Numbered from the stretch's first letter, positions 7,374 to 31,596 are shown. The stretch: DNA of 32,000 nt from Nitrosomonas europaea (GCF_900167395.1 NZ_FUWK01000026.1:10204-42203); one strand, 5' to 3'. A program made the numbers and translations. Notes: generated by a model from the sequence alone, not told the origin.

Positions 7374-7655
7374 TTGGTAACTCGAACGGATTGATAGACC
7401 ATCATATTGAAAAAACAGACAAATACCATAATACCTGATACTGGAAAAGAAAATCTGATTATTCAAAATGAATATATGTTTCCACTGGATTGGAAAAAAT
7501 AAGCCCTTAATAAGCCCTTGCAGGGCCTGCAACAGTAATTTCGCAACGACAGAAAAATTGAGTGAAATCATACGCAACCAGATAAGGCCGGGTTATGATT
7601 GACACGGACTGTCCGTCGAGTCCGATATCGAAACCAGTTACATCAAGGTGATACC

Positions 7656-8684
7656 ATGATTTCAAATCCGGTCAATTCTGCAGTTATTGTGTCTGCCACC
7701 CCAACTGATGCAATTTCACAAACTCGGCCGGTCAGTGCAGTTACCCCGGTACCGGATGCCACACAATCGGATACACCTGCCTTTATTCTGGGCCAGAAAT
7801 ATAGGGCACAGATCGGTGAACGGCTGACGAACGGCCATTCCCTCGTCAATGTCGCCGGCAGATGGCTGCAAATGCGCATGCCCGCTTCGGCAAACCCTGG
7901 AAATATTCTGGAATTAACGTTGATCGAGCAGTCTCCCCGGCTGAAATTCTTGCTGCACAGCGGTACTCAAGGTGGCAATAACCCGACAACACTCAGTCCG
8001 GCCGGCAGACTCATCGCACAGTTGCTGAGCCAGCCTGCCCCACCTGCCATGAAAACTGCGAACGAAGCAGCCCCGCTGTTGCCGATACCACCCGCTACCG
8101 GTAGAGAAAGAATTCAGTTGCCCGCTCAACTGCAGCAAGCACTGTCAGCCAGCGGGTTATTCTACGAAGCTCATCTGGTGCAATGGCTCAGCGGCAACCG
8201 TTCGCTGCAACAACTCCGGCAGGAACCGCAAGGCAAACTGCCCGCACCGGCAACCGTATCCACAACGATTACTGATTCAGCCACGGCTTCACCAGTCGCA
8301 TCCCAGGCAGTGTCACTGATACAACAGCAACTGCATACCCTGGAAACCGGAACCATCCAGTGGCGGGGAGAAATCTGGCCAGGACAGACCATGGAATGGG
8401 ATATCACCGAATATCCGGATGATCAGGGGAAAGAACAGGCCGACAATGAAAAAACCGGGAAATCAGGTCGCTGGCAGACCCGGATTCACCTGCAACTGCC
8501 AAATCTGGGAAAAATCACTGCCACTATCATGATCGAACCACAGGGTATGCGAATCCGGCTGGATGCCGATTCCGATGAAATTACACGACAGCTCAGGAAA
8601 GAACAGATTACGCTGGCAAGCGCCATGCAAACGACCGGGCTGACGATTCGTGCGATGGACATTCAGCAACATGAAGCGACCTGA
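7656..8684 (+). CDS. FliK-like flagellar hook-length control domain protein (paralogue)
   Basis: The C-terminal region (GKITATIMIEPQGMRIRLDADSDEITRQLRKEQITLASAMQTTGLTI) resembles the Flg_hook/FliK C-terminal domain, and LFYEAHLVQW is typical of this paralogue. I place the start at ATG 7656 after AAGGTGA. The longest ORF starts at 7599. Confidence 0.65.
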   Translation: MISNPVNSAVIVSATPTDAISQTRPVSAVTPVPDATQSDTPAFILGQKYRAQIGERLTNGHSLVNVAGRWLQMRMPASANPGNILELTLIEQSPRLKFLLHSGTQGGNNPTTLSPAGRLIAQLLSQPAPPAMKTANEAAPLLPIPPATGRERIQLPAQLQQALSASGLFYEAHLVQWLSGNRSLQQLRQEPQGKLPAPATVSTTITDSATASPVASQAVSLIQQQLHTLETGTIQWRGEIWPGQTMEWDITEYPDDQGKEQADNEKTGKSGRWQTRIHLQLPNLGKITATIMIEPQGMRIRLDADSDEITRQLRKEQITLASAMQTTGLTIRAMDIQQHEAT

Positions 8685-9030
8685 GCCAACCGGGCAAGAG
8701 AATCAGGGCGAACCGACTGATTCACCCGCCCCACCAGAACATACTCCGATTCCCGGAGCAGTAGCACTCGCCTATCACAGCGGCATGACTGCTCCCCAGG
8801 TGGTTGCCAAGGGCCGGGGACTGATTGCTGAAGAAATCATTCGCCGCGCTCAGGAAGCCGGCGTGTATGTGCATGAATCGGCAGAACTGGTGGCACTGCT
8901 GATGCAGGTCGATCTGGATGATCACATTCCACCGGAACTGTATATCGCCGTAGCAGAGTTGCTGGCCTGGCTCTATCGGCTGGAAAACGATCTGGCGATG
9001 CCCGCCGACTCACCCGATCCTTCTCAGTGA
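8671..9030 (+). CDS. FlhB C-terminal-domain-only protein (FhlB/YlqH-like, EscU/YscU family)
   Basis: AVALAYHSGMTAPQVVAKGRGLIAEEIIRRAQEAGVYVHESAELVALL...IPPELYIAVAELLAWL matches the post-cleavage FlhB cytoplasmic subdomain. There is no TM region and no NPTH motif. It overlaps the stop of the upstream FliK-like gene. An alternative start is 8650. Confidence 0.8.
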   Translation: MKRPEPTGQENQGEPTDSPAPPEHTPIPGAVALAYHSGMTAPQVVAKGRGLIAEEIIRRAQEAGVYVHESAELVALLMQVDLDDHIPPELYIAVAELLAWLYRLENDLAMPADSPDPSQ

Positions 9031-9092
9031 CAGTGTTACCGGATCACACACTGCCATGCAGCTCGCGGCTAATAGTGCATGTATGGCTTGTA

Positions 9093-9124
9093 ATTCCATT
9101 CCCAAATCAAAAATGACACGAAGG
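9093..9124. repeat. 32-nt exact copy of the left arm of the intergenic element at 15950-16051
   Basis: ATTCCATTCCCAAATCAAAAATGACACGAAGG is identical to 15950-15981. It lies in the convergent gap between the FlhB-like gene and ycgR. Confidence 0.9.
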
Positions 9125-9172
9125 GCAGGAGTAATGATGACATCAGATTTTTTAATGTGATCTGTAACGATG

Positions 9173-9970
9173 TCAGAAGTGTGATTTCGTATCGAATTTT
9201 CTGGCCTGTTGTTCGAGCCAGATAATGTAACGTTGTATCAGCGTCCCTGATTTCTCAGACAAATTTACAAATTCACAACCGATGCGCGAGCAGGTGTTGC
9301 CATTGGAAAGAATGGCCATACTGATGCTCACGATCCGGACGGTAGTTTCAATCGTGTCGAATTCCGGTAATTCAATCCGGCAGTGCTCCAGCGTCATACC
9401 AGCTTCCAGCGGCGCATCGGTATCCGGCCGATCGATCAGCGCCATGCCACCGCGGCTGATATCCAGCAGATTGAGCGTAAGAAAAACTTCCTCATGTTGC
9501 CTCAATGGTGGAATGACGCAAGTTGCAGGGTTTGCCACGGGCGTTGCGATCCGATAAAAATTGCGCCGCTGCAGACGTTTCAGCGATGTCGGGAGATCTG
9601 CACTGAATGCATTGCGACCCTCAAACCGGATGTGCTGCAGGTTGTTGCAATCGAATTCGATCCTGATGCGGTTATGGCTGGTGACACAACGCAACATCCC
9701 GCTCTTGAGTGCCATTTGATTGAGTGTTTCATTGATCCCGTAATCCAGTACCAGTAACTTCTTTTGCAAATCGACAGCCAGAATGGATGAGAGAATCGCA
9801 GAGTGGCTGTTGCGGGCGAGATGCAGTGAAATCAGTGATTTTTCCTGCATGATTCCATTGAGGAAAAAACATACTTCAGTCAGAGAATGCACGATGTAGT
9901 CGGATTCATTCGTATCCCGCGATACGGATGAAGGCGCTGCCAATTCTGGATTTTTCCGAAGTATGGCCAT
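9173..9970 (-). CDS. ycgR: PilZ-domain flagellar brake protein YcgR
   Basis: 265 aa. It has an N-terminal YcgR/PilZN-like half and a C-terminal PilZ domain with c-di-GMP motifs RRNFYR (RRxxxR) and DISRGG (DxSxxG). Confidence 0.85.
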   Translation of the reverse strand: MAILRKNPELAAPSSVSRDTNESDYIVHSLTEVCFFLNGIMQEKSLISLHLARNSHSAILSSILAVDLQKKLLVLDYGINETLNQMALKSGMLRCVTSHNRIRIEFDCNNLQHIRFEGRNAFSADLPTSLKRLQRRNFYRIATPVANPATCVIPPLRQHEEVFLTLNLLDISRGGMALIDRPDTDAPLEAGMTLEHCRIELPEFDTIETTVRIVSISMAILSNGNTCSRIGCEFVNLSEKSGTLIQRYIIWLEQQARKFDTKSHF

Positions 9971-18793: not shown

Positions 18794-19939
18794 ATGCCGA
18801 ATCTGCCCGCCCTTCCAGATATGGGTCTGCCTGTCGTAACCAGCGACCTCACAGCAACCCTTTTACCGGGCGTTGCCAGCCCCATTGTTCCCGGACAGCC
18901 AATCGAACAGGCATTTAGCAGCATCCTGATCAGTATGATGAAAAGCGATCAGGCCATTGAAGACGACACCGAAAATCCGGCACCGGTATCAATCGATGCA
19001 CTCATAGCCGGCATGATAGCTGCGCCGGCCAATCCACCTCAGCTCGTTCCATCTCAGCCCGCACCGGATGCACTGGACACACCGAATGCACCGGACGCAC
19101 CGGCGGAAGAACTGTTATCCATGCTGGCGACAAGCATGATGCCGAATACCGGCCAGCCAGTGACGGATGAGCCTGTTACCTTCCCCGCAGGCGGACTGGC
19201 ATCTGCAACGCCGCCAAATCTGCCATCGGACTCTGGCCGACACGCTGCCGATCCACTCCAGACAACCAGCCAGGCTCACGCTGCTCCTCTCCCTGCTGAA
19301 CTCCCGGCCGGAAATATCAGTACAAGTACCCCGTTTCCCGCTCCTGTGAACAGCTTTAATCAGGCAATCGATGCGGCAAATTTTGCCGATAGCGGCAAAT
19401 CCTTGCCGCCTTCGATGACATCTGTCCCGGTAACACCTGTAGCCGCACATACCAGCAGCACGCCACTGACTGATATTGCTGCTGATACCACGGCGAATGA
19501 TGCGCCGGCTATTGCCGCAGAATTTGGCCAGCCGGACTGGCCGGAAGAATTCGGCCGTAAAATCACCTGGCTGGCGACACAGCGGATGCAAGCGGCAGAA
19601 CTGAAACTGCATCCAGCCCATCTCGGCCCGATAGAAATTTCACTGCAGTTATCCGATGATCAGCGGCTTACGGCACAATTCATTTCACACCACCCCGCAG
19701 TCCGTGAAGCCATCGAAGCCAATCTGCCAAGATTGCGTGAGATCATGGCAGAAAACGGAATTACGCTGGCTGATACCTCAGTCAGTGCAGATACACCCGG
19801 GCAGCAGGCAGAAAACAGACAAGGCAGTCCCTTCCGCCGCCCGGCAGCCGGTGATCACTCCACCTACGATTCCACCAGTCCGCAGACACCAGCCTTACAG
19901 GCAACCAGACGTTCCAGCCTCATCGATACGTTCGCCTGA
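18794..19939 (+). CDS. fliK: flagellar hook-length control protein FliK
   Basis: Pro/Ala-rich N-terminal ruler region. C-terminal Flg_hook domain: AAELKLHPAHLGPIEISLQLSDDQRLTAQFISHHPAVREAIEANLPRLREIMAENGITL. I prefer ATG 18794 after GAGGA; the longest ORF starts at 18758. Confidence 0.85.
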   Translation: MPNLPALPDMGLPVVTSDLTATLLPGVASPIVPGQPIEQAFSSILISMMKSDQAIEDDTENPAPVSIDALIAGMIAAPANPPQLVPSQPAPDALDTPNAPDAPAEELLSMLATSMMPNTGQPVTDEPVTFPAGGLASATPPNLPSDSGRHAADPLQTTSQAHAAPLPAELPAGNISTSTPFPAPVNSFNQAIDAANFADSGKSLPPSMTSVPVTPVAAHTSSTPLTDIAADTTANDAPAIAAEFGQPDWPEEFGRKITWLATQRMQAAELKLHPAHLGPIEISLQLSDDQRLTAQFISHHPAVREAIEANLPRLREIMAENGITLADTSVSADTPGQQAENRQGSPFRRPAAGDHSTYDSTSPQTPALQATRRSSLIDTFA

Positions 19940-20073
19940 CAAGCTTACCGCTTCTGCTTCACACTCACTCCCTCATGCCCGGCATCGGCAAGGGCCATCT
20001 GCTTCATTGATAAGCCCGACAGGTAAAATCCAGGTCCCTTGCCAGAATCAAAAAGTCTTCTTCAGAAATTCCC

Positions 20074-20101
20074 TAAATGTAACAAGACGCTATGCCGTAA
20101 A
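20074..20101 (+). promoter_or_regulatory. candidate FliA (sigma-28) class-III-type promoter
   Basis: TAAATGTA-N12-GCCGTAAA compared with the consensus TAAAGTTT-N11-GCCGATAA. It lies about 120 nt upstream of the repeat-protein start codon. Confidence 0.45.
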
Positions 20102-20219
20102 GAGAAATAACGCCATAAAGGCTAGCGTAATGCCCGTAATACTGAGCATATTTTAGATCTAATGCCCTTATCCGCATTGATACCGAATAGGGACCCAACA
20201 AGTTTTGGAGAAAATAATT

Positions 20220-22241
20220 ATGTCGATTATCAGCAGCCTGACCCCAACCCAAATCTCTGCGTTGACAACGACGCAGATAAAAGATCTCACCACAGGAGAT
20301 ATGAAAGCGCTTTCTGACAAGCAGATCAACGCGATGACATCCACTCAGATCGCGGCCATTGAAACGCAAGATCTGGTCATCCTGAGCGGCAAGCAGATCG
20401 GGGCTTTTAATCCAAACCAATTTACCTACGGTTTGACCACCACACAAATCCAGGCGATTAATAAGGCGCAGGCCACCGGGCTTACCGCTGCCCAACTAAA
20501 AGACATGAATAGCGGCGATCTCTCCAGCCTGAGTGCAGACGCACTGGGCGCATTGTCCGCCAAGCAAATTCAGGGATTGAATTCCACTAACATCGAATCA
20601 CTTACAACAGCTCAGGCAGCCGTACTCAGCTACCAACAAATAGCAGCTATTAGCATAGATGCCGTCAAGGGATTTGAAACCGAGGATCTGGCTCAAATTA
20701 GCACCGCTGCCATCAAAGGTTTGACTGCTGCACAACTCGGTGCCCTGAACAGTGAGCAATTCAGCTCTCTGGATTCCAGCCAGGTGCAAGCCCTTTCCGC
20801 CAAACAAATCCAGGCGCTGGGCACGGATGTAATCAAGAATTTAACAACCAGCGACATGAAGGAGTTCTCTGCCACCCAGGTCGCTGCCCTGAGTAGCGCA
20901 CAACTGAAAGAACTCTCCAGCGGCCAACTTTCAGCCCGAAGTACAGACGCACTGGGTGCATTGTCTGCCAAGCAGATTCAGGGGCTGGATGCAACCAACT
21001 TATCCACCGACACTATCAGTGCACTGACCGCCAAACAAATCGCAGCACTGACCACAACTCAATTGAGTGGAATGAACAGCAGCCAGATCGGAGCTATCTC
21101 AACGAGTGGCATCGCCAGCCTGACCGCCGCACAAATCAAGGGATTGAGCAGTGCAAACGTGGAAGCGCTAACCTCAGATCAGGCTAAAATCCTGTCTGCC
21201 AAACAGCTTGCAGGCCTTGGCACAGATGCCGTCAAGGGATTTGAAACCGCAGATCTGGCTAAAATTGATGCCGCCGCCATCAAAGGTTTGACTGCCGCGC
21301 AACTCGGCGCACTGGGCAGTGCACAATTCAACTCTCTGGATTCCAGCCAGGTGCAAGCCCTTTCTGCCAAACAAATCCAGGCGCTGGGCACGGATGTAAT
21401 CAAGAATTTAACAACCAGCGACATGAAGGAGTTCTCTGCCACCCAGGTCGCAACGCTGACCACAGCTCAGTTAAACGCTATGGATAGCGACCAGATCGGC
21501 GCTATCTCAACGAGTGGCATCGCCAGCCTGACCGCCGCACAAATCAAGGGATTGAGCAGTGCAAACGTGGAAGCGCTAACCTCAGATCAGGCTAAAATCC
21601 TGTCTGCCAAACAGCTTGCAGGCCTTGGCACAGACGCCGTCAAGGGATTTGAAACCGGTGATCTGGCTCAAATTAGCACCGCCGCCATCAAGGGTTTGAC
21701 TGCCGCGCAACTCGGCGCGCTGGGCAGTGCACAATTCAACTCTCTGGATTCCAGCCAGGTGCAAGCCCTTTCTGCCAAACAAATCCAGTCACTGGGCACG
21801 GATGTAATCAAGAATTTAACAACCAGCGACATGAAGGAGTTCTCTGCCACCCAGGTCGCAACGCTGACCACAGCTCAGTTAAACGCTATGGATAGCGACC
21901 AGATCGGCGCTATCTCAACGAGTGGCATCGCCAGCCTGACCGCAGCACAAATCAAGGGATTGAGCAGCGCAAGCGTGGAGGCGCTAACCTCAGATCAGGC
22001 TGCAGCCCTGTCCGCCAAACAGCTTGCAGGCCTTAGCACAGATGCCGTCAAGGGATTTGAAACCGGTGACCTGGCTCAAATTAGCACCGCTGCCATCAAA
22101 GGTCTGACTATAGGTCAAATCAAAGAATTAAGTACTGATCAAGTAACAGCACTGACATCAGATCAGGTACAAGCCCTTTCTGCCAAACAGATTCAGGCCT
22201 TCACCACGGATCAGATTCAACACCTGAATTTTGGCAGCTAA
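20220..22241 (+). CDS. octad-repeat protein (673 aa), uncharacterised; no signal peptide
   Basis: ATG 20220 is preceded by GGAG; the track ORF begins at TTG 20205. Almost the whole protein parses as 8-aa units (LTPTQISA LTTTQIKD LTTGDMKA LSDKQINA ...). It has no Cys and no Trp. A strong terminator follows. Confidence 0.85.
   Translation: MSIISSLTPTQISALTTTQIKDLTTGDMKALSDKQINAMTSTQIAAIETQDLVILSGKQIGAFNPNQFTYGLTTTQIQAINKAQATGLTAAQLKDMNSGDLSSLSADALGALSAKQIQGLNSTNIESLTTAQAAVLSYQQIAAISIDAVKGFETEDLAQISTAAIKGLTAAQLGALNSEQFSSLDSSQVQALSAKQIQALGTDVIKNLTTSDMKEFSATQVAALSSAQLKELSSGQLSARSTDALGALSAKQIQGLDATNLSTDTISALTAKQIAALTTTQLSGMNSSQIGAISTSGIASLTAAQIKGLSSANVEALTSDQAKILSAKQLAGLGTDAVKGFETADLAKIDAAAIKGLTAAQLGALGSAQFNSLDSSQVQALSAKQIQALGTDVIKNLTTSDMKEFSATQVATLTTAQLNAMDSDQIGAISTSGIASLTAAQIKGLSSANVEALTSDQAKILSAKQLAGLGTDAVKGFETGDLAQISTAAIKGLTAAQLGALGSAQFNSLDSSQVQALSAKQIQSLGTDVIKNLTTSDMKEFSATQVATLTTAQLNAMDSDQIGAISTSGIASLTAAQIKGLSSASVEALTSDQAAALSAKQLAGLSTDAVKGFETGDLAQISTAAIKGLTIGQIKELSTDQVTALTSDQVQALSAKQIQAFTTDQIQHLNFGS
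20505..22110 (+). repeat. 408-bp (136-aa, 17-octad) tandem coding super-repeats
   Basis: Units start at 20505 (divergent), 21072, 21480 and 21888 (partial). The 21072 and 21480 units are near-identical at nucleotide level. The 408-nt spacing is also visible in the duplicated antisense ORFs of the track (21174 and 21582). Confidence 0.9.
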
Positions 22242-22280
22242 ACTGTCGATAGCTACTAATTAACAGCAGATATTTACTAA

Positions 22281-22318
22281 CCACGATATTGGAGCTGATC
22301 CGATATCGTGGTTTTTTT
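22281..22318 (+). terminator. rho-independent terminator of the repeat-protein gene
   Basis: CCACGATAT...ATATCGTGG stem followed by TTTTTTT. Confidence 0.85.
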
Positions 22319-22458
22319 ATTGGCAGTACAAGCAGCAATAGAACAGGCGTCCGGAACATCCCGGAAATATATCCATTTCTGTCACCAGATTCAGCGGAGT
22401 CATGTAGCTTTTAGGATGTCAGAAACTAATGTACTATTTCTTACATAGAGAGATATCC

Positions 22459-23055
22459 ATGAACACACTGCCCGAGACCATCCTGCAACAAGCACGATCT
22501 CTCCAAGAGGGAGGTATTCTGTCGCCCAGGGAATTCCTGCACCTGGGAAGCCGGTCGGCGGTAGATCAGGCATTTTCCAGACTGGCCAAGGCCGGTAGAC
22601 TACTGCGCGTGGCGCGTGGCACCTACGCCATCCCGGTTTCCAGCCGGTTCGGCTCACGCGCTCCCGCTCCCGAGAAAGTCATCAGGGCGCTGGCCGAACA
22701 AAGCGGTGAAATCGTCGTACCACATGGCGCCAGCGCGGCCAATGTCCTGGGCCTGACGCAGCAGGTACCCATCCGCGAGGTCTATCTGACCTCCGGACGC
22801 ACCCGAAAGCTGAAGCTCGGCCGCTCGGAAGTGCTCATCAAGCACGCCCCGCGCTGGATGCTGGCGCTGGGTACACGACCAGCCGGCGCGGCCGTGCGCG
22901 CACTGGCCTGGATTGGACCCACACACGCTGGCAAGTCGCTGGCATCGCTGCGCCGTATTCTTCCTCTCCCCGAATGGCAAGCGTTGATCTCAGCGCGAGC
23001 AACGCTGCCCGGCTGGATGGCACAAGCCATCGGCGAGGAAGCCGCGCGTGGCTGA
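22459..23055 (+). CDS. abiEi: AbiEi-family type IV toxin-antitoxin system antitoxin (transcriptional regulator)
   Basis: N-terminal wHTH-like region with GILSPREFLHLGSRSAVDQAFSRLAKAGRLLRVARGTYA, typical of AbiEi_4/DUF6088 antitoxins. It overlaps the downstream AbiEii gene by 8 nt. I prefer the start at ATG 22459; the longest ORF starts at 22429. Confidence 0.8.
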   Translation: MNTLPETILQQARSLQEGGILSPREFLHLGSRSAVDQAFSRLAKAGRLLRVARGTYAIPVSSRFGSRAPAPEKVIRALAEQSGEIVVPHGASAANVLGLTQQVPIREVYLTSGRTRKLKLGRSEVLIKHAPRWMLALGTRPAGAAVRALAWIGPTHAGKSLASLRRILPLPEWQALISARATLPGWMAQAIGEEAARG

Positions 23056-24070
23056 ATATTTCTTTGACCTGAACAAAAGAGATCAACGCGAAGCGCTGGA
23101 ATACGGGCGGGCCGAAACCGGCCGCCCCATTCACCTGCTTGAAAAGGATATATGGGTAGTGTGGGCGCTGCGCGCCCTGTTCGTATCACCGTTGTCGGCC
23201 GACTTGACATTCAAGGGTGGCACATCACTGTCGAAGGTTTACAAGCTCATCGACCGCTTCTCCGAAGATATCGACCTGACCTGCGACATCCGCAAGCTGA
23301 TCCCGGACCTGGTCGGCAAAGGCGACGAACTGCCGGCCAGCCGCAGCCAGGCTGGCAAGTGGACGCAGACCGTGCGGCATCGGCTGCCAGACTGGATCAT
23401 GCAGAACGTGCAGCCAGTGGTTCAAGCGGCCCTGGTCCGCGAGCAACTGAACGCCCGATTGGAACTCGGCGGCTCAGACAACGACAAGCTGTTCCTGCAC
23501 TACCCCGCTCTGGCGCAAGGCACGGGATACGTAGCGCCTGTCGTCACACTGGAGTTCGGCGGCCGCGCCACTGGCGAGCCGCACCAGGTATTCCCGATTA
23601 CTTGCGACATCGCCGCACATCTGGCTGACGTGTCGTTCCCCATCGCGTCACCGCTGGTCATGAGCGTCGCGCGTACCTTTTGGGAGAAGGCCACTGCTGC
23701 ACATGTGTTCTGCGCACAAGGCCGCATTCGCAGCGAACGCTACGCACGGCATTGGCACGACCTGGCCGCGATCGCACGCAGCCCGCATTTCGCAGCCGTA
23801 ATTGCGGATCGTACGGTGGCAATCGCTGTTGCCCGCCACAAGTCATACTTCTTCATCGAGAAAGATGCAGATGGCCAAGCCATCGACTACATAGCCGCGA
23901 CCACAGGGCATCTGAAAATCGTCCCCGAGGGCGAGGCCAAAGCCGCACTCGCCAGGGACTATGCGGCCATGCTGGCCGATGAAGTGATGGTGGGCAATGC
24001 CTTATCCTTCGATGCATTGTTAAAGGCATGTGCCGACCTCGAAGCCAGGGTGAACAGGGCTGCCTTGTAG
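23048..24070 (+). CDS. abiEii: AbiEii/AbiGii-family nucleotidyltransferase toxin
   Basis: FKGGTSLSKVYKLIDRFSEDIDL is the hallmark NTase motif of AbiEii. The GTG start overlaps the antitoxin stop (GTGGCTGA). The segment is GC-rich. Confidence 0.88.
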   Translation: MAEYFFDLNKRDQREALEYGRAETGRPIHLLEKDIWVVWALRALFVSPLSADLTFKGGTSLSKVYKLIDRFSEDIDLTCDIRKLIPDLVGKGDELPASRSQAGKWTQTVRHRLPDWIMQNVQPVVQAALVREQLNARLELGGSDNDKLFLHYPALAQGTGYVAPVVTLEFGGRATGEPHQVFPITCDIAAHLADVSFPIASPLVMSVARTFWEKATAAHVFCAQGRIRSERYARHWHDLAAIARSPHFAAVIADRTVAIAVARHKSYFFIEKDADGQAIDYIAATTGHLKIVPEGEAKAALARDYAAMLADEVMVGNALSFDALLKACADLEARVNRAAL

Positions 24071-24106
24071 CGACAACAGGATCAACAAGGACTGCCTGGG
24101 AGAGCT

Positions 24107-24181
24107 ACGCGTGTTTCACGATTGCAGATAGAGAACTTCCGCGGCATCAGGAAAGCGGAGCTTCATTTTTCGGGCCATTGA
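24107..24181 (+). pseudogene. 5' stub of an AAA/OLD-RecF-like ATPase gene (truncated before Walker A)
   Basis: The frame reads (T)RVSRLQIENFRGIRKAELHFSGH*. This is the classic N-terminal strand of AAA_15/OLD/SMC-like ATPases (MR.S.L.IENFR.I). ACG sits where ATG is expected. The stub ends at TGA 24179-24181, exactly at the palindrome and the GC-content drop. Confidence 0.4.
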
Positions 24182-24199
24182 ATCGCCCCGGGGCGATTC
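24180..24199. repeat. perfect 20-nt palindrome at the right junction of the GC-rich island
   Basis: GAATCGCCCCGGGGCGATTC is self-complementary over all 20 nt. Confidence 0.9.
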
Positions 24200-24311
24200 A
24201 GAAGTGCTCACAAATAACCTGAAATTATCGGGTTAATCAGCACTTTTGCGGGATCACCCAGCTGATAGATTGCAGAGCATAACTGTTACTGCTTTTTATC
24301 AGGAGCCAAAC

Positions 24312-27300
24312 GTGCCAACCCATTCCCTATCTGATTACACCAGCTGGATCGAACGCACCTGGCAGGGCCAGGTTTCCTTTACCGAGCTGGTCACTTACGC
24401 TGAAACGTTAAATTCACATCCCGCGCTGTGCGCTGCACTCTACCGCACCTGGCTGCAGCGTAATACAGGCGTTTTCAACAGCGTTGCCTGGTTCAATCTC
24501 GGCGTTATTCTTTTTGCTGAAAATAACCTGATTGATTCGATTGAAGCTTTCCAGAAGGCACTGGCGCTTAGCCCGGCTTTCCCCCAGGCCCGTATCAATC
24601 TCGGACTGGCGCTTGAACGCCAGGGCAATGCAGAAGCCGCCATTGAACAATGGCAGGCAGTTGTTGAGAACGCCATCACGCCGGAAGCTGATCAAAATAC
24701 CGGGCCAAACCAGGCAGATCAGATAAAAAACCTGACCATGGCGCTCAACAACATCGGGCGCCTGCAGGAAACCCGGCGGCAATATCAGGCAGCCACTCAG
24801 GCGCTGGAAAAAAGCCTGCAGCTTGACCCTGATCAGCCGGATGCCATCCACCACCTGATTTTTCAGCGCCAGAAACAATGCCAGTGGCCGGTTTACGCAC
24901 CAGTGGGCAAGGTCACAGAAGCGGTATTGCATGAACACACCTCGGCGCTTGCCATGCTGAATATCTCGGATGCCCCGGAAGCCCAGCTTACCGCTGCCCT
25001 GAACTACAGCCGCCGCAAGATTCCGGCTGATCTGCCTCGGCTATCCCCTGCCAATGGTTACCGCCACGACAAGATTCGAGTTGCCTATTGCTCCAGCGAT
25101 TTTTGTACTCACCCGGTTGCCATGCTCACGGTTGAACTGTTTGAGCACCACGACAAAAACCGCTTTGAAACCTATGCTTTCTGCTGGTCGCCGGACGATG
25201 GTTCAACCTTGCGCCAGCGTATTCTTTCTGCCGTGGATCATTACATTCCCGTGCACGGCAAAAGTGATGACGAAGTTGCCCAACTCATCCGCCAGCACGA
25301 GATTGATATTCTCATCGATCTGCAAGGCCAGACTAGCGGCGCTAAAACCCGCATGCTGGCCATGCGCCCGGCACCTATGCAAATCACCTATCTGGGCCTG
25401 CCGGCCACTACGGGTTTGCCGGGAATTGATTATGTCATCGCCGACCGCTACCTGATTCCCGAAGAATATGCCCGCTTCTACAGCGAAAAACCGCTCTATA
25501 TGCCGGATGTCTATCAGGTTAGCGACCGCAAGCGCGAACACAGCCCCGCCCCCACCCGCAAGGATTGCGGCCTGCCCGCGCGCAAGTTTGTGTTCTGTTC
25601 CTTCAACAACAACCACAAATACACACTGGAAGTGTTTACCACCTGGATGAACATTCTGCGCCGCGTTCCCAACAGCGTGCTGTGGCTGCTGGCGGACAAC
25701 CCCTGGGCCAGGGAAAACCTGCAAAAACAGGCCAAAGCACAGGGCATTGACCCGAAACGACTGGTATTTGCCGAACGCACCATGCCAGCCGATTATCTGG
25801 CGCGCTATTTGGTTGCTGACCTGTTCCTCGACACTTTCCCCTTCAATGCCGGCACCACCGCTAATGATGCGTTATGGATGGGCCTGCCGGTGCTGACCAT
25901 GAGTGGACGTTCCTTCGCTTCCCGCATGGCAGGTGCACTGCTGACTGCCGCCGATCTACCTGAACTCATCACTCATGATCTGCAAACTTATGAAGATAAA
26001 GCGGTAGCCCTGGCTGCAGATGCCAAAGCGCGCAAAACCATGCGCCAGAAACTGGCGCTGGCCAAAGAAAGCGGCCCGCTGTTCGATTCGCTGCGCTTTA
26101 CCCGTAATCTGGAACAGCAATACATCGCGCTCGTCAGTGAACTGCAAAACCCGTCTCAGCACATCAATATCAGCGCACAACCTGAACCGACAAAATTGGG
26201 AGAGCCGGCACAGCCCAACCCAATCATCGCTACTGTTCAGGAGGCAGAAGCACTGCAAGCCAGGGGAGATACACAAGGCGCTATCCAGCTCTACCGCCAG
26301 TGGCTTGAGCACGCCCATTCAGGAGATGAATGGATAGCCCAGTTCAATCTGGGTGTACTGCTGAGAGACGGGGGAGATATCACAGGTGCACAACAAGCCT
26401 TTCAGGCTGTGTTGAAGCAAAAACCGGATTTCGTACAGGCAAGAGCGGCGTTAGGGAAATTACCGGCGCCGGTGACAACCGAGAGCCAGAAACACGGGGC
26501 AATCATTGGCCCACTACAAACCAACTCTCCAATTAGTACAAAGAGCAAGGAGCAGATAACGCAGATTTTTTCAGAAACGCCTAAGATCAAGTTGCTGGTC
26601 GAGGGGTGGAGAGGAATAAACCATTCGTTTGCCTTGGTAAATCAATACCATCTGTACGAGTGGATGCGATCCAGTCAATTACATATTTATCATCGCGATA
26701 TGCCCTTGCTCTTCTCGCATTGGGAAACGAACAAGAACAGGGGTAATACAGGGCTTCCGGGAACATACAGCCAGCGACTAGCACAAGTTCAGCACTGGAG
26801 TGGTCAGACCTATGATGCATGTTTCCGTATCTATTCACCGGTCACATTGGCGCCGGATGACAAACATCCAGTTTCTACATTCCTCGTAACAGAGCTCGGA
26901 TTGGATGAAACGCAAATTGCTCATTTCAGACCCAATCTCAAGGCCTATTTCAATATGGGAGGAAACATTGTCACTCCATCTCATTGGTCAAAAGAAAGAA
27001 TTATTGAAGCTGGCATACCAGCTGAGCATATCCATCTTATTTCCCACGGTGTAGCCTCAAATATCTTCCATCCAATGCATTCAGATGAACGTGCCATTCA
27101 TCGCCAACGCTTGGGATTTGATCGTGAGGCAGTTATTTTCCTCAATGTAGCTGCTCCGATATGGAACAAGGGACTGGATCTCTTGATTCAGGCTTTTGTC
27201 CAGTGTTTCCATCAGAATCCTCATACCAGGCTGCTCATCAAAGATCAGCAGGCTGTTTATGGTATCAGCACCAAGGATACAGTTTTACGCGAGATAACAC

Positions 27301-27815
27301 TGCTGGGTGAAAGCAAAAATGAATCCTTGCTGAATGCCATCCGAGTTATTCCGGATCTGAATCTGCTCCAACTCAGAGAGTTATATTGTATCGCCGACTA
27401 CTATGTTTCGCCGTACCGTGCCGAAGGTTTCAATCTGCCTGTTATTGAAGCTCTTGTGTGCGGCACGCCAGTCATTGTTACAGAAGGCGGCGCCACACAA
27501 GATTTTTGCAGCGAAAAAAATGCCTTGTTCATTGAGGCTGTGCCTTACAGAAATGTCAAAATCAACGACAGGCACGTTAATGCTTATCAGGCCCCCATTC
27601 TGGACTCACTAATTACTCATCTAAATGTATGCGCACAGGATAAGCCTTTCTCCGAAAGCCAACGTCTGCAGAATGCGGCATCTATTGCCAAGAATTTTAC
27701 CTGGGCAAAAGCGGCTGACACGATTTCCCGATTGTTCACGCAATCAAATGATTGCAATACCAGCACATCTCAAATAACTGGAGCCTTACATGAAGAACCC
27801 CAATACTGTAATTAG
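24312..27815 (+). CDS. fusion glycosyltransferase: TPR - GT41 (O-GlcNAc-transferase/SPINDLY-like) - TPR - GT4 (Glycos_transf_1)
   Basis: GTG 24312 follows AGGAG; the track ORF starts at TTG 24246. TPRs are in the N-terminal ~200 aa. The GT41-like core carries KIRVAYCSSDF, ILIDLQGQT, ITYLGLPATTG, FCSFNNNHK, DTFPFNAGTTANDALWMGLPVLT. A second TPR block lies around aa 690-750. The C-terminal GT4 domain has the E-x7-E region (AEGFNLPVIEALVCGTPVI). Confidence 0.88.
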   Translation: MPTHSLSDYTSWIERTWQGQVSFTELVTYAETLNSHPALCAALYRTWLQRNTGVFNSVAWFNLGVILFAENNLIDSIEAFQKALALSPAFPQARINLGLALERQGNAEAAIEQWQAVVENAITPEADQNTGPNQADQIKNLTMALNNIGRLQETRRQYQAATQALEKSLQLDPDQPDAIHHLIFQRQKQCQWPVYAPVGKVTEAVLHEHTSALAMLNISDAPEAQLTAALNYSRRKIPADLPRLSPANGYRHDKIRVAYCSSDFCTHPVAMLTVELFEHHDKNRFETYAFCWSPDDGSTLRQRILSAVDHYIPVHGKSDDEVAQLIRQHEIDILIDLQGQTSGAKTRMLAMRPAPMQITYLGLPATTGLPGIDYVIADRYLIPEEYARFYSEKPLYMPDVYQVSDRKREHSPAPTRKDCGLPARKFVFCSFNNNHKYTLEVFTTWMNILRRVPNSVLWLLADNPWARENLQKQAKAQGIDPKRLVFAERTMPADYLARYLVADLFLDTFPFNAGTTANDALWMGLPVLTMSGRSFASRMAGALLTAADLPELITHDLQTYEDKAVALAADAKARKTMRQKLALAKESGPLFDSLRFTRNLEQQYIALVSELQNPSQHINISAQPEPTKLGEPAQPNPIIATVQEAEALQARGDTQGAIQLYRQWLEHAHSGDEWIAQFNLGVLLRDGGDITGAQQAFQAVLKQKPDFVQARAALGKLPAPVTTESQKHGAIIGPLQTNSPISTKSKEQITQIFSETPKIKLLVEGWRGINHSFALVNQYHLYEWMRSSQLHIYHRDMPLLFSHWETNKNRGNTGLPGTYSQRLAQVQHWSGQTYDACFRIYSPVTLAPDDKHPVSTFLVTELGLDETQIAHFRPNLKAYFNMGGNIVTPSHWSKERIIEAGIPAEHIHLISHGVASNIFHPMHSDERAIHRQRLGFDREAVIFLNVAAPIWNKGLDLLIQAFVQCFHQNPHTRLLIKDQQAVYGISTKDTVLREITLLGESKNESLLNAIRVIPDLNLLQLRELYCIADYYVSPYRAEGFNLPVIEALVCGTPVIVTEGGATQDFCSEKNALFIEAVPYRNVKINDRHVNAYQAPILDSLITHLNVCAQDKPFSESQRLQNAASIAKNFTWAKAADTISRLFTQSNDCNTSTSQITGALHEEPQYCN

Positions 27816-28539
27816 CTCTGACTACGGTCCAATCATTATTAACCTGAACGACAATGCAATTGGACGGCAAATCAGCCAATATGGATACTGGGCAACAGAT
27901 GACATCAATATCATCAATACCTTAGTTAATGTTCAGTTAGATAAATTTGGCCAAATCATGTTCTACGATGTAGGTGCGAATATCGGCACGCATTCACTAG
28001 CAATTGCCAAAACTCATCCCGATACAGTTGCTATTCGGGCATTCGAAGCACAGCGGCAAGTATTCAATATGCTGTGCGGCACTATGGCAATCAACGGGCT
28101 TTCGAATGTCCATTGCCACCATAATGCCATTAGTGAAAAAATCGGAGATTTTATTGACATCCCCATACCAGACTATAACAGCGCCAACAACTTTGGAAGC
28201 TTAGAGCTAATCCCACCAAAAAACTCCGACAACCAAGGCATCATCCATAGCGGAAAAATGGAAAGTGTCAAAACATTATCAATTGATTCATTCAATGAAA
28301 AAGTTGATTTTATCAAAATGGATATTGAAGGGATGGAAGACAAGGCGCTCTTGGGAGCAATCAACACAATCGAACATCATCGGCCAATTCTCTTCCTCGA
28401 AATCCTGAAAACAGATGTTAATTTTGTTATGACCTTTCTGAGGGAAAGAGGTTATCTCGGATTTCAGAAATCATTTGATCTGATCGCCATACCGATTGAA
28501 TATCAACTACAAGTCAATGGCACAAATCGGGTTTTCTGA
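27790..28539 (+). CDS. FkbM-family SAM-dependent methyltransferase
   Basis: FYDVGANIGTHSLAIAK (SAM-binding G-loop) and DFIKMDIEGME are typical of FkbM. It overlaps the end of the glycosyltransferase gene by 26 nt. The segment is very AT-rich. Confidence 0.87.
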   Translation: MKNPNTVISSDYGPIIINLNDNAIGRQISQYGYWATDDINIINTLVNVQLDKFGQIMFYDVGANIGTHSLAIAKTHPDTVAIRAFEAQRQVFNMLCGTMAINGLSNVHCHHNAISEKIGDFIDIPIPDYNSANNFGSLELIPPKNSDNQGIIHSGKMESVKTLSIDSFNEKVDFIKMDIEGMEDKALLGAINTIEHHRPILFLEILKTDVNFVMTFLRERGYLGFQKSFDLIAIPIEYQLQVNGTNRVF

Positions 28540-28839
28540 AAATTATTTGTATCTGTTGCCACAGGCCATACTGAAAGTAAGAAATATAATTACAAAGTGG
28601 ATTAATCAGTTGCAATGACGGGAAATTTATTCTCATTTGTGCCACAACCACCAGCATTTTTATGAGACCACAGACTGTAGAGCCAACAGTAACCCACTAA
28701 ATACAACCCCTTTTCAAAGCTTAAATGGCAGCACTTACACCTTATTCTCCCTCGTATCTGTTTGATGATCGAGAGCTTGCATCCGAGTTGAATGACAAGC
28801 GCAGTTTTAAGCATCTAAACGATAAAAAGGGAGAAGGCT

Positions 28840-29853
28840 TTGTTTGACGTTAATTACGAAAAACAAGCTCAGGACTATTACAGCAAGGCCCCCATCATAA
28901 TTTTAGGTAGTGGTGCCTCGGCTACGCATGGAATGCCTGGCATGCGGGGGCTTGCGCAACATCTGACCGACAAAACCGATGTTTCAGGACTGTCTGATGC
29001 TGAGATGGAGCCTTGGAGGAGCTTTTGCCGGACACTCACAGATGGTGTGGATTTGGAATCGGCACTCCGCCAGGTAGCCGTATCTGAAGAGCTGACTTGC
29101 AGGATCATAAATTCCACTTGGTCACTTATCAACTCTGAAGATGCTGCAATCTTCAAGAATAGCTTGCAAAACAGCTCGATGTTCCCGCTGAGCCGTCTGC
29201 TTGAACACATGTTCAAAACAAGCCTAAAAAAAATAAATATTGTCACTACAAATTATGATCGCTTGGCAGAGTATGCATGCGACCAAAGCAGAATTCATCA
29301 CTACACTGGATTTACTCACGGATTTTTCCGCCAACTGGCCACGCCCGATGAATTAACCTGCTCACGCAGAGTGAATATTTGGAAAGTACATGGATCTCTC
29401 GACTGGTTTCAGTCGCCACTAGAAGACACCATCGCAATTTCAGGCGCACAAGAAATTCCTGAAAATTACAGCCCACAGATTGTGACACCTGGCACGCAAA
29501 AGTACCAAAAGACGCACCTTGAGCCATTTCGCTCCATCATAAATAACGCCGACATAGCTATTAATGAGGCGGGTTCATACTTGTGCATCGGGTATGGATT
29601 CAATGATGAGCATGTTCAGCCAAAACTTATGGCTAAATGCCAGCGACAGGGGGCGCCAGTCACCATTATCACATACGCACTTTCCGATTCGACTAAAAAA
29701 CTTATTCTTGGCGGCAAAGCACAAAATTATTTAGCGATAGAGCGTGGGGCGACAGATGGCCAGTCTGTTGTCTACTCTTCTCTGAGCAGTTCTTCGTTCA
29801 CAGTAGAGAAGAACATCTGGAGCCTTGAAGGCTACTTATCACTCATCATGTAG
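28840..29853 (+). CDS. SIR2-family (SIR2_2) NADase-type defence protein, partner of HerA
   Basis: IIILGSGAS (Rossmann G-loop), VTTNYDRL and WKVHGSLDWF (catalytic Asn/Asp and His contexts of SIR2_2). The apparent start is TTG, preceded by AAAGGGAGAAGG. The stop lies 9 nt before herA. Confidence 0.82.
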   Translation: MFDVNYEKQAQDYYSKAPIIILGSGASATHGMPGMRGLAQHLTDKTDVSGLSDAEMEPWRSFCRTLTDGVDLESALRQVAVSEELTCRIINSTWSLINSEDAAIFKNSLQNSSMFPLSRLLEHMFKTSLKKINIVTTNYDRLAEYACDQSRIHHYTGFTHGFFRQLATPDELTCSRRVNIWKVHGSLDWFQSPLEDTIAISGAQEIPENYSPQIVTPGTQKYQKTHLEPFRSIINNADIAINEAGSYLCIGYGFNDEHVQPKLMAKCQRQGAPVTIITYALSDSTKKLILGGKAQNYLAIERGATDGQSVVYSSLSSSSFTVEKNIWSLEGYLSLIM

Positions 29854-29862
29854 AGAGGGCAT

Positions 29863-31596
29863 ATGCCAATATTCAACTTTAGGGATGAAGAAGCGCTCGG
29901 GAAGGTTGCTTCCGTTGATACCACGAATGTAATTGTGGATGTGGAGAATGTCGCTCATCTAAAAAGGTTACAGGTTAATCATCTCGCCGTGCTTCAGAGC
30001 AGCAGGCCTGGGCAGCACCTCATTGGCCTTATTACGCAGGTGACTAGAAAGCGAGGCATCGAAAATATTTCCGATGATGGAATCGTCGACCAAAATTCAG
30101 AATTGAATCTGTGTCGCATTGCCTTAATTGGAACCATGCTAGATCGCGATGGCTCCAAGGAGAATGTTTTTCGTCGAACAATCGAAAGTGTTCCCGAAAT
30201 AGATGCCAACTGCTTTTCGCTCGAAGGCGAGAACCTCACTGGATTTATGCGCACGCTCTCCAGCGTTTCAGCGGAAGGAAATGCCTTGACGCTAGGGAAG
30301 TACACGTTGGATGAGAATGCAGTAGCCTACCTTAATGGTAATAAATTTTTCCAGCGCCATGCCTTTATCGGAGGAAGTACAGGTTCTGGAAAGTCTTGGA
30401 CAACTGCCAAAATTATTGAGCAAATGTCAGGGCTTTCTACAGCGAATGCCATTGTCTTTGACCTTCATGGCGAATACTCTCCATTGACAGGGCCAGGCAT
30501 TCAGCACTTCAAGGTTGCAGGGCCGGCAGATGTTGAAGCCAAACGCACCATCTCTGATGATGTGCTTTATCTTCCTTATTGGCTGCTTTCTTATGAGGCG
30601 CTAGTTTCCATGTTTGTGGATCGTAGCGATCAGAATGCCCCTAACCAAGCTATGATAATAGCTCGCGAGATCAATCAAGCGAAAAGAAAGTACCTTGAGG
30701 ACAATGGGCAGCAGGCGTTACTAAAGCACTTTACTGTTGATAGCCCAGTTCCATTCGATCTCGATTTCCTTATGGAGCGATTGAATTCGATTAACGTCGA
30801 GATGGTTCCCGGCGCTAAAGCTGGAACCGAAAAGCAAGGCGATTTCTTCGGAAAGCTCGCGCGCATGATTTCCAGGCTTGAGAACAAAATTTCCGATAGG
30901 CGTCTCGGATTTATGTTCAACGGTGGCGGAGACATTCTTGACTTCGCTTGGCTTGAGAAGTTTGCCAATGCTGCTCTCGGAAGCACGGGCGAGAACGGCA
31001 AGGCAGGTATCAAGATCATCAACTTCTCTGAGGTTCCCTCGGACGTTCTTCCCCTGATAGTCTCCCTTGTTGCACGAGTCACATTTTCGGTGCAGCAGTG
31101 GACTCCATCAGAGCTTCGCCATCCCATTGCGCTTCTCTGTGATGAAGCTCACCTCTATATGCCCCAGCGCAACATGGCAGATTCCGCAGACGATATTTCA
31201 TTGGATATATTCGAGCGCATCGCGAAAGAAGGACGAAAATATGGCGTCAGCTTGGTTGTAATCAGTCAGCGTCCATCCGAAGTAAACAAAACGCTGCTTA
31301 GCCAGTGCAGCAATTTTGTATCTATGCGTCTGACTAATGCCGAAGATCAAGGCGTTATCAAACGCCTTCTCCCCGACAGCCTTGGCGGCTTCAGTGACAT
31401 CCTTCCCACACTCGATACTGGTGAGGCTTTGGTTGTCGGCGATGCCAGCTTATTGCCAAGTCGCATCAGAATCGACGAGCCACAGAACAAGCCGAATAGC
31501 GGAACTGTGAACTTCTGGGATGAATGGCAGAAGCCAGTCAAAGACAATCGGCTATTGATTGCCGTCGATAACTGGCGCAAGCAAAACATCCAATAG
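29863..31596 (+). CDS. herA: HerA-like (DUF87/FtsK-HerA superfamily) ATPase of a SIR2-HerA defence pair
   Basis: N-terminal HAS-barrel-like region (GKVASVDTTNVIVDV). Walker A GGSTGSGKS. Walker B LLCDEAHLYMP. The C-terminal signature is GVSLVVISQRPSEV...FVSMRLTN...GEALVVGDA. Confidence 0.9.
   Translation: MPIFNFRDEEALGKVASVDTTNVIVDVENVAHLKRLQVNHLAVLQSSRPGQHLIGLITQVTRKRGIENISDDGIVDQNSELNLCRIALIGTMLDRDGSKENVFRRTIESVPEIDANCFSLEGENLTGFMRTLSSVSAEGNALTLGKYTLDENAVAYLNGNKFFQRHAFIGGSTGSGKSWTTAKIIEQMSGLSTANAIVFDLHGEYSPLTGPGIQHFKVAGPADVEAKRTISDDVLYLPYWLLSYEALVSMFVDRSDQNAPNQAMIIAREINQAKRKYLEDNGQQALLKHFTVDSPVPFDLDFLMERLNSINVEMVPGAKAGTEKQGDFFGKLARMISRLENKISDRRLGFMFNGGGDILDFAWLEKFANAALGSTGENGKAGIKIINFSEVPSDVLPLIVSLVARVTFSVQQWTPSELRHPIALLCDEAHLYMPQRNMADSADDISLDIFERIAKEGRKYGVSLVVISQRPSEVNKTLLSQCSNFVSMRLTNAEDQGVIKRLLPDSLGGFSDILPTLDTGEALVVGDASLLPSRIRIDEPQNKPNSGTVNFWDEWQKPVKDNRLLIAVDNWRKQNIQ

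Follow-up and report, generated by a model that had tools for sequence, protein, structure and literature searches.

A conserved gene pair encoding an ALTTAQ octad-repeat protein and an OGT-type glycosyltransferase at the end of a flagellar gene cluster of Nitrosomonas europaea: a candidate substrate–enzyme cassette of Beta- and Gammaproteobacteria

At the end of a flagellar gene block of Nitrosomonas europaea lies a gene for a protein built of 8-residue repeats rich in serine and threonine, and behind it, beyond an AbiE abortive infection cassette, a gene for a glycosyltransferase of family 41 (GT41) with tetratricopeptide repeats (TPR). The question raised by this locus is whether the repeat protein is the acceptor of the enzyme encoded downstream of it. 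The stretch of DNA that was analysed, called the window in the following, comprises 32,000 nucleotides of one contig (GCF_900167395.1, NZ_FUWK01000026.1:10204-42203), and all positions are counted from its first letter. An initial annotation, made from the sequence alone, had proposed that the repeat protein, the glycosyltransferase with its second, GT4-type domain and an FkbM methyltransferase form a protein O-glycosylation module of the flagellar regulon which was split by the AbiE genes; every gene named there was found at its given position. As described below, a functional linkage of the repeat gene and the GT41 gene is very likely. Judged from the sequences, the repeat protein is probably, though with considerable doubt, the acceptor of the adjacent GT41 enzyme, and both would then form a dedicated substrate–enzyme cassette.

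The repeat protein belongs to the Pfam family PF20080 (ALTTAQ_rpt), a family of unassigned function, with an E-value of 4.3e-117 and 381.9 bits (cut-off 26.4) distributed over 24 stretches. Close orthologues were located via the GT41 gene, as the homologue search missed true orthologues; five ALTTAQ orthologues looked up by exact sequence were all absent from the protein collection. In the genome scan the window glycosyltransferase served as query against one genome per species, and ALTTAQ genes were then sought by tblastn and phmmer. An ALTTAQ gene directly upstream of a GT41 gene and on the same strand was found in 52 loci (14 genomic, 38 metagenomic), which are phylogenetically non-independent and span two proteobacterial classes, the Beta- and Gammaproteobacteria. 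In the genome scan, every locus with upstream DNA and a GT41 protein at least 48 % identical to that of the window showed the ALTTAQ gene immediately upstream (L005-L010, L012, L015-L017, from Nitrosomonas, Rubrivivax, Burkholderiaceae, Stutzerimonas and Geopseudomonas). Four more genomic pairs came from additional GT41 homologues: between two flagellin genes in Thauera butanivorans, between fliT and fliE in an Acidovorax genome, amid housekeeping genes in Pseudomonas sp. LPB0260, and in the gamma proteobacterium HdN1 (L046), where an ALTTAQ protein of 4563 amino acids is followed by GT41 and dTDP-sugar genes.

The metagenomic loci give a comparable picture. Among 80 of them, 38 show the direct, same-strand pair with ALTTAQ upstream, one has AbiE between an upstream ALTTAQ gene and GT41, and 11 carry ALTTAQ elsewhere within 7 kb; another 15 have no ALTTAQ gene although at least 1 kb of upstream DNA is present, and the remaining 15 are uninformative. 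Hence, the direct pair occurs in 38 of the 65 informative loci, and in all informative loci whose GT41 is at least 59 % identical. The initial annotation had made its proposal dependent on a co-occurrence of both genes across genomes, and the outcome is strongly positive.

In N. europaea itself the pair is interrupted by the AbiE cassette, and its insertion between the repeat-gene terminator and the GT41 leader is demonstrated by empty sites. In three collinear relatives with 85-96 % nucleotide identity (L053, L054, L055) the terminator runs directly into the GT41 leader (24209-24311, plus strand), which is kept there, and AbiE is missing. The 105-kb contig L054 (87-95 % nucleotide identity) is collinear from fliG through fliK, the repeat gene and the terminator, and its sequence joins position ~22324 to ~24222. 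For the three relatives together the junction corresponds to window positions ~22324-22326 and ~24208-24222, so that the cassette represents an insertion of ~1.9 kb at ~22327-24208 (plus strand). Its GC content is 0.61-0.63 compared to ~0.50-0.55 on both sides. The first gene, AbiEi (22429-23055; assigned by Pfam and by PADLOC with E 2e-64), overlaps by 8 nucleotides with the second, AbiEii (23048-24070; PADLOC E 3e-94, PF08843 E 1.7e-38), both lie on the plus strand, and together they have the features of an AbiE type IV toxin–antitoxin or abortive infection system. The assumption of a foreign and later inserted segment is thus borne out, and so is the expectation that the repeat gene and the GT41 gene adjoin each other in related genomes without AbiE. 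A second N. europaea strain (L044) and L052 carry the cassette at this site as well. Related cassettes with 73-74 % nucleotide identity are found on Ralstonia megaplasmids, and 146 plasmid records were matched. The heptamer TTTTTAT at 22316 and 24291 was considered as a target-site duplication and rejected, since the right junction lies at ~24208 and the empty-site alignment contains no clear duplication. The AbiE insertion is a clean case of a defence cassette which landed in an intercistronic spacer.

The repeat gene extends from 20220 to 22241 on the plus strand (in the open reading frame list from a TTG at 20205) and encodes 673 amino acids from the ATG at 20220, which is preceded by a GGAG at a distance of 8 nucleotides. 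The periodicity of the protein is evident from a residue identity of 0.24 at a lag of eight, against ~0.07 at other lags, and a register-aware parse yields 83 octads with the consensus L-[ST]-[TSA]-x-Q-[ILV]-x-[AG]. At least one Ser or Thr is present at the octad positions 2-4 in 80 of the 83 octads, altogether 130 residues, in agreement with the more than 100 candidate sites counted by the initial annotation; in the whole protein Ser and Thr make up 156 residues (23 %). Asn-X-Ser/Thr sequons are restricted to six, and a Sec signal is missing. Conservation is much better in the first ~70 residues, which are kept across Nitrosomonas, Thauera, Rubrivivax, Acidovorax and Burkholderiaceae, than in the remainder; the C-terminal sequence ...TTDQIQHLNFGS is conserved as well. 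Inside the gene a higher-order repeat of 408 bp is present in 2.5 copies with 95 % identity.

An AlphaFold2 model of residues 1-264, based on an alignment of 44 sequences, reached a pLDDT of 93 and a pTM of 0.83. It contains one 5-residue helix per octad (positions 3-7) and a linker formed by positions 8, 1 and 2, and on this basis the octads are predicted to stack into a long solenoid rod of short helices. The Ser/Thr of position 2 stands just ahead of each helix and the Gln of position 5 three residues further on; a Ser or Thr followed by a Gln three residues later is the classic N-cap/N3 arrangement of a capping box. A Foldseek comparison of the model with the PDB gave weak matches and no close solved fold, the best match being mesothelin with a TM-score of 0.34-0.36.

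The repeat number in the family varies more than fivefold, from ~80 to >500 octads; in the 4563-residue protein of HdN1 (L046, 1-9901), located just upstream of GT41, octads continue throughout the part that was read. Compared to the reference genome of N. europaea ATCC 19718, AL954747.1 (L001, 5801-7996), the flanks of the repeat gene are identical and the inner part shows a 159-bp deletion at 21443/21444 as well as 14 mismatches, so that the protein counts 678 amino acids in the window (from the TTG start) and 731 in AL954747.1. Either the repeat length truly varies between stocks, or the assembly of one record has collapsed here. The window protein consists of repeats only, in contrast to the ALTTAQ-calpain and ALTTAQ-SPM proteins of the same family (PF20080); most other members that were found carry C-terminal domains (calpain, SPM, metalloproteases), and the checked cases adjoin type I secretion genes without GT41. 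One ALTTAQ protein (P0013, L050) shares its contig with genes for ubiquitin and a SUMO protease-like Peptidase_C48, and another match (P0105) is annotated to the amoeba Planoprotostelium fungivorum, so that the repeat possibly exists in eukaryote-associated or eukaryotic genomes, too.

The glycosyltransferase is encoded by an open reading frame at 24246-27815 (plus strand) with a probable start at the GTG 24312, deduced from homology and from the orthologue P0122, and the product comprises 1167-1189 amino acids. Its conserved core (24312-26450) is composed of N-terminal TPRs, an OGT-type GT41 domain (PF13844, E 1.9e-79) and a second short TPR block, and several TPR families match. Human OGT aligns with the first 620 residues (E 1.5e-86), and XcOGT from Xanthomonas (2jlb; E 2e-83) aligns over its full length, with residues 80-613 of the window enzyme corresponding to 24-543 of XcOGT. 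Three motifs of human OGT have counterparts in the alignment: FNNNHKY/FNQLYK with the conserved Lys, NAGTTAND/NGHTTGMD and SSDFCTHP/SSDFGNHP. We take the Lys of FNQLYK to be K842 of human OGT, the TT pair to be the phosphate-binding motif, and the His to be that of the FGNHP motif. By its TPRs, its catalytic domain and these residues, the enzyme is assigned to the OGT/SPINDLY type of GT41, and a transfer to Ser/Thr is predicted. Two other activities were considered. An N-glycosyltransferase (NGT) of the HMW1C type was discarded, as the NGT model NF049992 reaches only 26.8 bits (cut-off 1000) and the repeat protein holds its six sequons only. A role in polysaccharide synthesis is not favoured, because GT41 is a protein-directed family and no polymerase, flippase or export family is found among the window open reading frames of at least 140 amino acids.

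Which of the many hydroxyl groups would be used is suggested by a comparison within the ALTTAQ family. Ser/Thr at position 2 occurs in 65-97 % of the octads of every ALTTAQ protein examined. Ser/Thr at position 3 is found in 58-100 % of the octads in all 44 GT41-linked proteins, whereas 41 ALTTAQ proteins fused to calpain show a median of 0.31, and three out of three of these with a checked context have no GT41 (Mann-Whitney p ~1e-10, a value without correction for phylogeny). At the sequence level, position-3 Ser/Thr thus is a mark of the GT41-linked ALTTAQ clade. A blind prediction of GT41 linkage from the position-3 content was right in two of three cases (P0024, linked; P0003, not linked).

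Downstream of the core the glycosyltransferase gene changes its character. The GT4 (GT-B) domain (26451-27815, plus strand; PF00534, PF13692) is an in-frame fusion of low GC content which varies between strains, and it is followed, with an overlap of 26 nucleotides, by a gene for an FkbM-family S-adenosylmethionine-dependent methyltransferase (27790-28539, plus strand; TIGR01444 with 84.7 bits against a cut-off of 37.7, PF05050 with E 1.2e-14). The succession of TPR-GT41 enzyme, second glycosyltransferase and FkbM methyltransferase had been described correctly. However, the native composition ascribed to its distal part does not hold: the GC content is 0.44-0.46 in the GT4 part and 0.41-0.46 in the GT4 half and FkbM overall, and both belong to a strain-variable cassette. 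All relatives lose their alignment with the window at ~26444-26454, inside the glycosyltransferase gene and just past the second TPR block. The second N. europaea strain has 92 % protein identity upstream of this point and an unrelated C-terminus downstream, followed by a methyltransferase-GT2 fusion, a DegT aminotransferase and an acetyltransferase. Judged by these alignments, ~26444-26454 is a recombination breakpoint behind which the segment after the GT41 core has been swapped.

A fusion of GT41 and GT4 also exists in L012 (60 % identity), P0126/P0127/P0156 and L057. The latter locus, which belongs to another Nitrosomonas lineage, has the ALTTAQ gene directly upstream, no AbiE, and a GT41 whose N-terminal part is only 80 % identical at the protein level; nevertheless, it matches window positions 24741-31024 (the rest of GT41, GT4, FkbM, SIR2 and HerA) with 97.3 % nucleotide identity, which indicates that this segment was exchanged horizontally. 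The window FkbM is 100 % identical in L057 and 61 % in L100/L104. FkbM genes stand beside GT41 in L005, L045, L049, L053 and L057, those of L005, L045, L049 and L053 being other FkbM subtypes, and Methyltransf_11 or Methyltransf_23, separate or fused, accompany GT41 in L006, L012, L016/17 and L048. Further tailoring genes associated with GT41 are those for GT4 (L012), UDP-galactopyranose mutase (L007) and dTDP-sugar synthesis with a C-methyltransferase (L046), and a three-gene accessory set is common to Nitrosomonas L005 and Thauera L045 with 62-75 % identity. The inclusion of FkbM in the proposed module therefore needs a restriction: methyltransferases recur beside GT41, but FkbM is an interchangeable and not a fixed part. 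The swappable GT4, FkbM and sugar cassettes suggest a diversifying selection on the glycan, as for flagellin and O-antigens.

With respect to expression, the flagellar block fliF-G-H-I-J-K, which also contains fleS/fleR-like two-component genes and fliE, ends at 19939 and is followed by the repeat gene, so that the locus does abut fliK. Between them the plus strand carries the sigma-28 (FliA)-like motif TAAATGTA-N12-GCCGTAAA (20074-20101), separated by 118 nucleotides from the ATG of the repeat gene. As had been noticed in the initial annotation, the motif is present, and it is the sole match to TAAA-N15/16-GCCGWWAA in the 32 kb, where 0.03 would be expected by chance. Upstream of the ALTTAQ genes of Thauera L045 and Nitrosomonas L005 a near-consensus TAAAGTTC-N11-GCCGATAT and a comparable TAAAGAAA-N11-ACCGCTAA are found, respectively. 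Membership in the sigma-28 regulon was judged from sequence matches to an upstream promoter of the type TAAA-N15-GCCGATAA; 4 of 12 ALTTAQ upstream regions contain it in strict form, against 0.05 expected from shuffles, and the other eight have no strict match. Flagellar genes within 7-10 kb accompany about half of the genome-derived lineages and 20 of the 80 metagenomic loci (window, L044, L006, L012, L017, L045, L048, L053-55, L067/68, L076, L093, L101). Consequently, the placement in the flagellar regulon can be kept in part, on the grounds of the enriched motif and the frequent flagellar neighbours, but not as a general feature, as many loci lack such neighbours and two thirds of the upstream regions lack the strict motif.

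Behind the repeat gene an intrinsic terminator or attenuator hairpin with a 15-bp stem and a T-run was detected by the terminator scan (22279-22322, plus strand; the terminator proper at 22279-22313). The repeat gene thus ends in a terminator of its own and does not simply share a transcript with the glycosyltransferase gene. Stable hairpins are found in the ALTTAQ-GT41 spacer of 9 out of 10 folded relatives (L005, L006, L009, L015, L012, L007, L045, L047, L048), the exception being L017 with a spacer of only 5 nucleotides. A hairpin at this place, as predicted from the spacer sequences, fits an abundant structural product followed by a low-level expression of the enzyme.

Hints to the export of the protein come from loci in which ALTTAQ proteins are encoded beside type I secretion genes, namely Geopseudomonas L017, Roseateles L041, Buttiauxella L043 and L049. 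In L049, the locus for which a GT41 linkage had been predicted correctly, the genes for a C39-like-TPR-GT41 protein, another glycosyltransferase and FkbM are divergent from an ALTTAQ-SPM gene, which is followed by a C39-ABC (ATP-binding cassette) transporter and an HlyD-type protein. The GT41 protein of this locus (5298-8924, minus strand) has an N-terminal Peptidase_C39-like domain (26.4 bits, cut-off 22), and in neighbouring loci the C39-like domain belongs to the ABC transporters of type I secretion; its presence suggests that the enzyme may recognise a secretion cargo. No match to HemolysinCabind, the model for RTX nonapeptide repeats, was found in the window, and a C-terminal type I secretion signal is not recognisable from sequence alone. 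A group of 22 more distant GT41 loci (L018-L039) stems mostly from Roseateles, Pelomonas and related Burkholderiaceae, with one Azoarcus metagenome-assembled genome; in those sampled (L019, L021, L027, L039) the GT41, 44-47 % identical, is followed by an ABC transporter with an N-terminal extension of ~200 amino acids, HlyD and TolC.

Taken together, the ALTTAQ protein would be a Sec-less solenoid of 8-residue units, and the ancestral order of the locus would be the ALTTAQ gene, an attenuating hairpin, the gene of a cytoplasmic TPR-GT41 enzyme and a variable set of tailoring enzymes. At least in the N. europaea lineage, the repeat gene may be transcribed with the late flagellar genes from the sigma-28-type promoter. 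The TPR domain of GT41 would bind the repeat protein, and the enzyme would O-glycosylate Ser/Thr residues of the repeats in the cytoplasm, most plausibly at the position-3 hydroxyl; GT4 could then extend the glycan and FkbM methylate it. The protein would leave the cell independently of Sec, probably by type I secretion in some lineages and possibly by the flagellar export apparatus in those with the pair in a flagellar cluster. All statements on the acceptor, its sugar, its export and its regulation are inferences from these data. A wider generalisation can be put forward only tentatively: the whole clade may represent natural dedicated substrates of OGT-type GT41 enzymes, i.e. rods of 80 to >500 octads which receive one O-glycan per repeat in the cytoplasm, are tailored by a swappable cassette, exported without Sec and made together with the flagella.

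Several observations speak against the ALTTAQ protein as the acceptor. According to the structural model, the Ser/Thr at position 2 can be explained as a helix N-cap, and it is conserved in ALTTAQ proteins without GT41 nearby as well. The position-3 signal could be a trait of the clade, as the sequences are phylogenetically non-independent, and the prediction failed for P0013, which has a high position-3 Ser/Thr content but no GT41. More distant GT41 relatives (44-58 % identity) have no adjacent ALTTAQ gene: a phmmer search for divergent ALTTAQ proteins found none within 10 kb of the 22 mostly Roseateles/Pelomonas loci, and 15 metagenomic GT41 loci, including L100 and L104 with the close FkbM relative, have none within 7 kb; two of the loci without ALTTAQ nearby (L100, L113) possess a separate GT4-like open reading frame. 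OGT-type enzymes bind extended peptides, for which reason the solenoid would suit them poorly once it has folded, unless modification comes first. Type I secretion genes (ABC, membrane fusion or outer membrane components) are missing in the 32-kb window. Finally, the AbiE insert and the terminator now stand between the repeat gene and GT41 in N. europaea, and for this reason a present-day co-expression of both genes is uncertain.

The main rival reading, rather unlikely though to be taken seriously, is that flagellin is the true acceptor, in which case GT41-GT4/FkbM would be a flagellin glycosylation island and the ALTTAQ protein a co-regulated late flagellar neighbour or a minor second target. 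Flagellin genes adjoin the pair in L012, L017, L045, L048 and L067/68 and more distant GT41 genes in L108, L118, L125 and L127-L131; the window locus abuts fliK and carries the sigma-28-like motif; and GT4-GT41 clusters (L100, with FkbM in between, and L113) as well as FkbM-GT41 (L104) occur without ALTTAQ nearby. GT41 (SPINDLY-type)-methyltransferase fusions and FkbM are furthermore common in enterobacterial flagellin glycosylation islands, but their description as flagellin modifiers is itself a prediction only (PMC4875605). However, the adjacency to ALTTAQ, which holds without exception among informative loci from 59 % GT41 identity upwards, is far tighter than that to flagellin, and many pairs are kept without any flagellar gene within 7-10 kb (L005, L007, L009, L015, L046, L047 and most metagenomic loci). 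The 32-kb window contains no flagellin gene, and L049 ties GT41 to a C39-like domain, type I secretion and ALTTAQ in a locus without flagellar genes.

Improbable is a role of the ALTTAQ protein as a partner, scaffold or regulator which acts on GT41 via the TPRs, or a mere share of both proteins in surface or flagellar biogenesis, with Ser/Thr being purely structural. The position-2 Ser/Thr and the position-5 Gln would fit a family-wide helix capping box, and the best conserved part, the N-terminal ~70 residues, is what a docking or signal module would look like. Yet, this leaves aside the extra position-3 hydroxyl, present throughout the GT41-linked clade and not in the calpain-fused class, and the nearby tailoring enzymes, which imply a real glycan product; besides, ~80 to >500 octads fit a structural product rather than a regulator. 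Hardly to be expected is that the GT4 domain and FkbM form a glycosyltransferase module of a conflict system with AbiE and SIR2-HerA. The GT4 part matches PF20706 ('GT4 in conflict systems') weakly (E 1.2e-5, below the cut-off), and the low-GC GT4-FkbM segment runs on into SIR2-HerA and moves with it as one, as seen in L057. A defence role of GT4 and FkbM was nevertheless dismissed, as PADLOC gave no match for the glycosyltransferase or FkbM and the GT41-GT4 fusion recurs elsewhere, without defence genes in L012, while FkbM stands beside GT41 in unrelated contexts.

There are precedents for a glycosyltransferase gene next to that of its repetitive, secreted substrate, namely HMW1/HMW1C, AIDA-I/Aah and the serine-rich repeat adhesins. 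In HMW1/HMW1C of Haemophilus influenzae, and in the related NGTs of Actinobacillus and Aggregatibacter, a cytoplasmic GT41 is likewise encoded next to a large surface protein with Sec-independent or special export; HMW1C modifies its adjacent protein at many sites before export, and the same is proposed here. However, HMW1C is an N-glycosyltransferase acting on Asn-X-Ser/Thr and has no TPR, whereas the window enzyme is of the OGT type with TPRs, and the fold of the substrate and the export route differ. AIDA-I/Aah, TibA/TibC and the serine-rich repeat adhesins with GtfA/GtfB also combine a dedicated glycosyltransferase gene with a repetitive secreted protein whose repeat Ser/Thr are hyperglycosylated in the cytoplasm. 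They differ in the glycosyltransferase families (BAHT, GT4/GtfB), in the folds (beta-helix or disordered) and in the export (type V or accessory Sec), so that the likeness is one of logic and not of family membership. The flagellin glycosylation islands, with the Caulobacter FlmG as a TPR-containing flagellin glycosyltransferase, resemble the locus in the flagellar setting, the TPR-containing enzyme, the variable and exchanged methyltransferase and sugar cassettes, the cytoplasmic modification and the Sec-independent export; here, however, the invariant neighbour is the non-flagellin ALTTAQ protein, and the pair is also found far from flagellar genes. Two bacterial OGT homologues with a solved structure or a partial characterisation, XcOGT (XCC0866) of Xanthomonas campestris and the Ogt of Synechococcus elongatus, which is reported to act on pilin (bioRxiv 10.1101/2021.07.06.449578), have the same architecture of TPR and GT41 and the same catalytic motifs, to which the window enzyme adds the second TPR block and GT4. 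For neither of them is an adjacent dedicated repeat substrate known to have been described. In the searched literature no published account of the ALTTAQ-GT41 pair was found. The logic of the arrangement is known; its present components, a short-helix solenoid of ALTTAQ repeats and a GT41 of the OGT type, and their flagellar and type I secretion associations were found in none of the searched papers.

Some further features of the region may be mentioned. Directly after FkbM a SIR2-HerA defence pair follows at 28840-31596 (PADLOC E 1e-141 and 5e-244), and beyond it the genome contains insertion sequence fragments, a group II intron reverse transcriptase and a ThsB-TIR gene; with AbiE included, the flagellar cluster thus ends in a small defence island. 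No family matches a 166-residue open reading frame at 19656-20156, which overlaps both the fliK 3' end and the repeat gene's promoter region and is unlikely to be a real gene. At 7599-9970 the window carries a trio of a second FliK-like protein (Flg_hook), a small protein consisting of the FlhB C-terminal domain only and a YcgR-type PilZ brake gene; the same trio is found after fliT in Thauera L045. A CHASE2-PAS-GGDEF-EAL signalling protein and a FecR/LysM protein are encoded upstream of the flagellar block (2866-7577, minus strand), and an EAL/GGDEF gene also stands ahead of the flagellin gene in L017.

Bacterial homologues of OGT such as XcOGT serve as structural models for the human enzyme, and no searched paper ties one of them to an adjacent repeat-protein substrate. 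The conserved pair with its highly repetitive candidate acceptor offers a testable and genetically tractable system of an OGT and its substrate. If the ALTTAQ protein is indeed the acceptor, a function could be assigned to the ALTTAQ Pfam family, and the flagellar and secretion repertoire of nitrifiers, denitrifiers (Thauera, Acidovorax) and pseudomonads would gain a glycoprotein of a new type. If the tentative generalisation to the whole clade is true as well, Beta- and Gammaproteobacteria would possess glycosylated fibres of a new class, either on the cell surface or extracellular.

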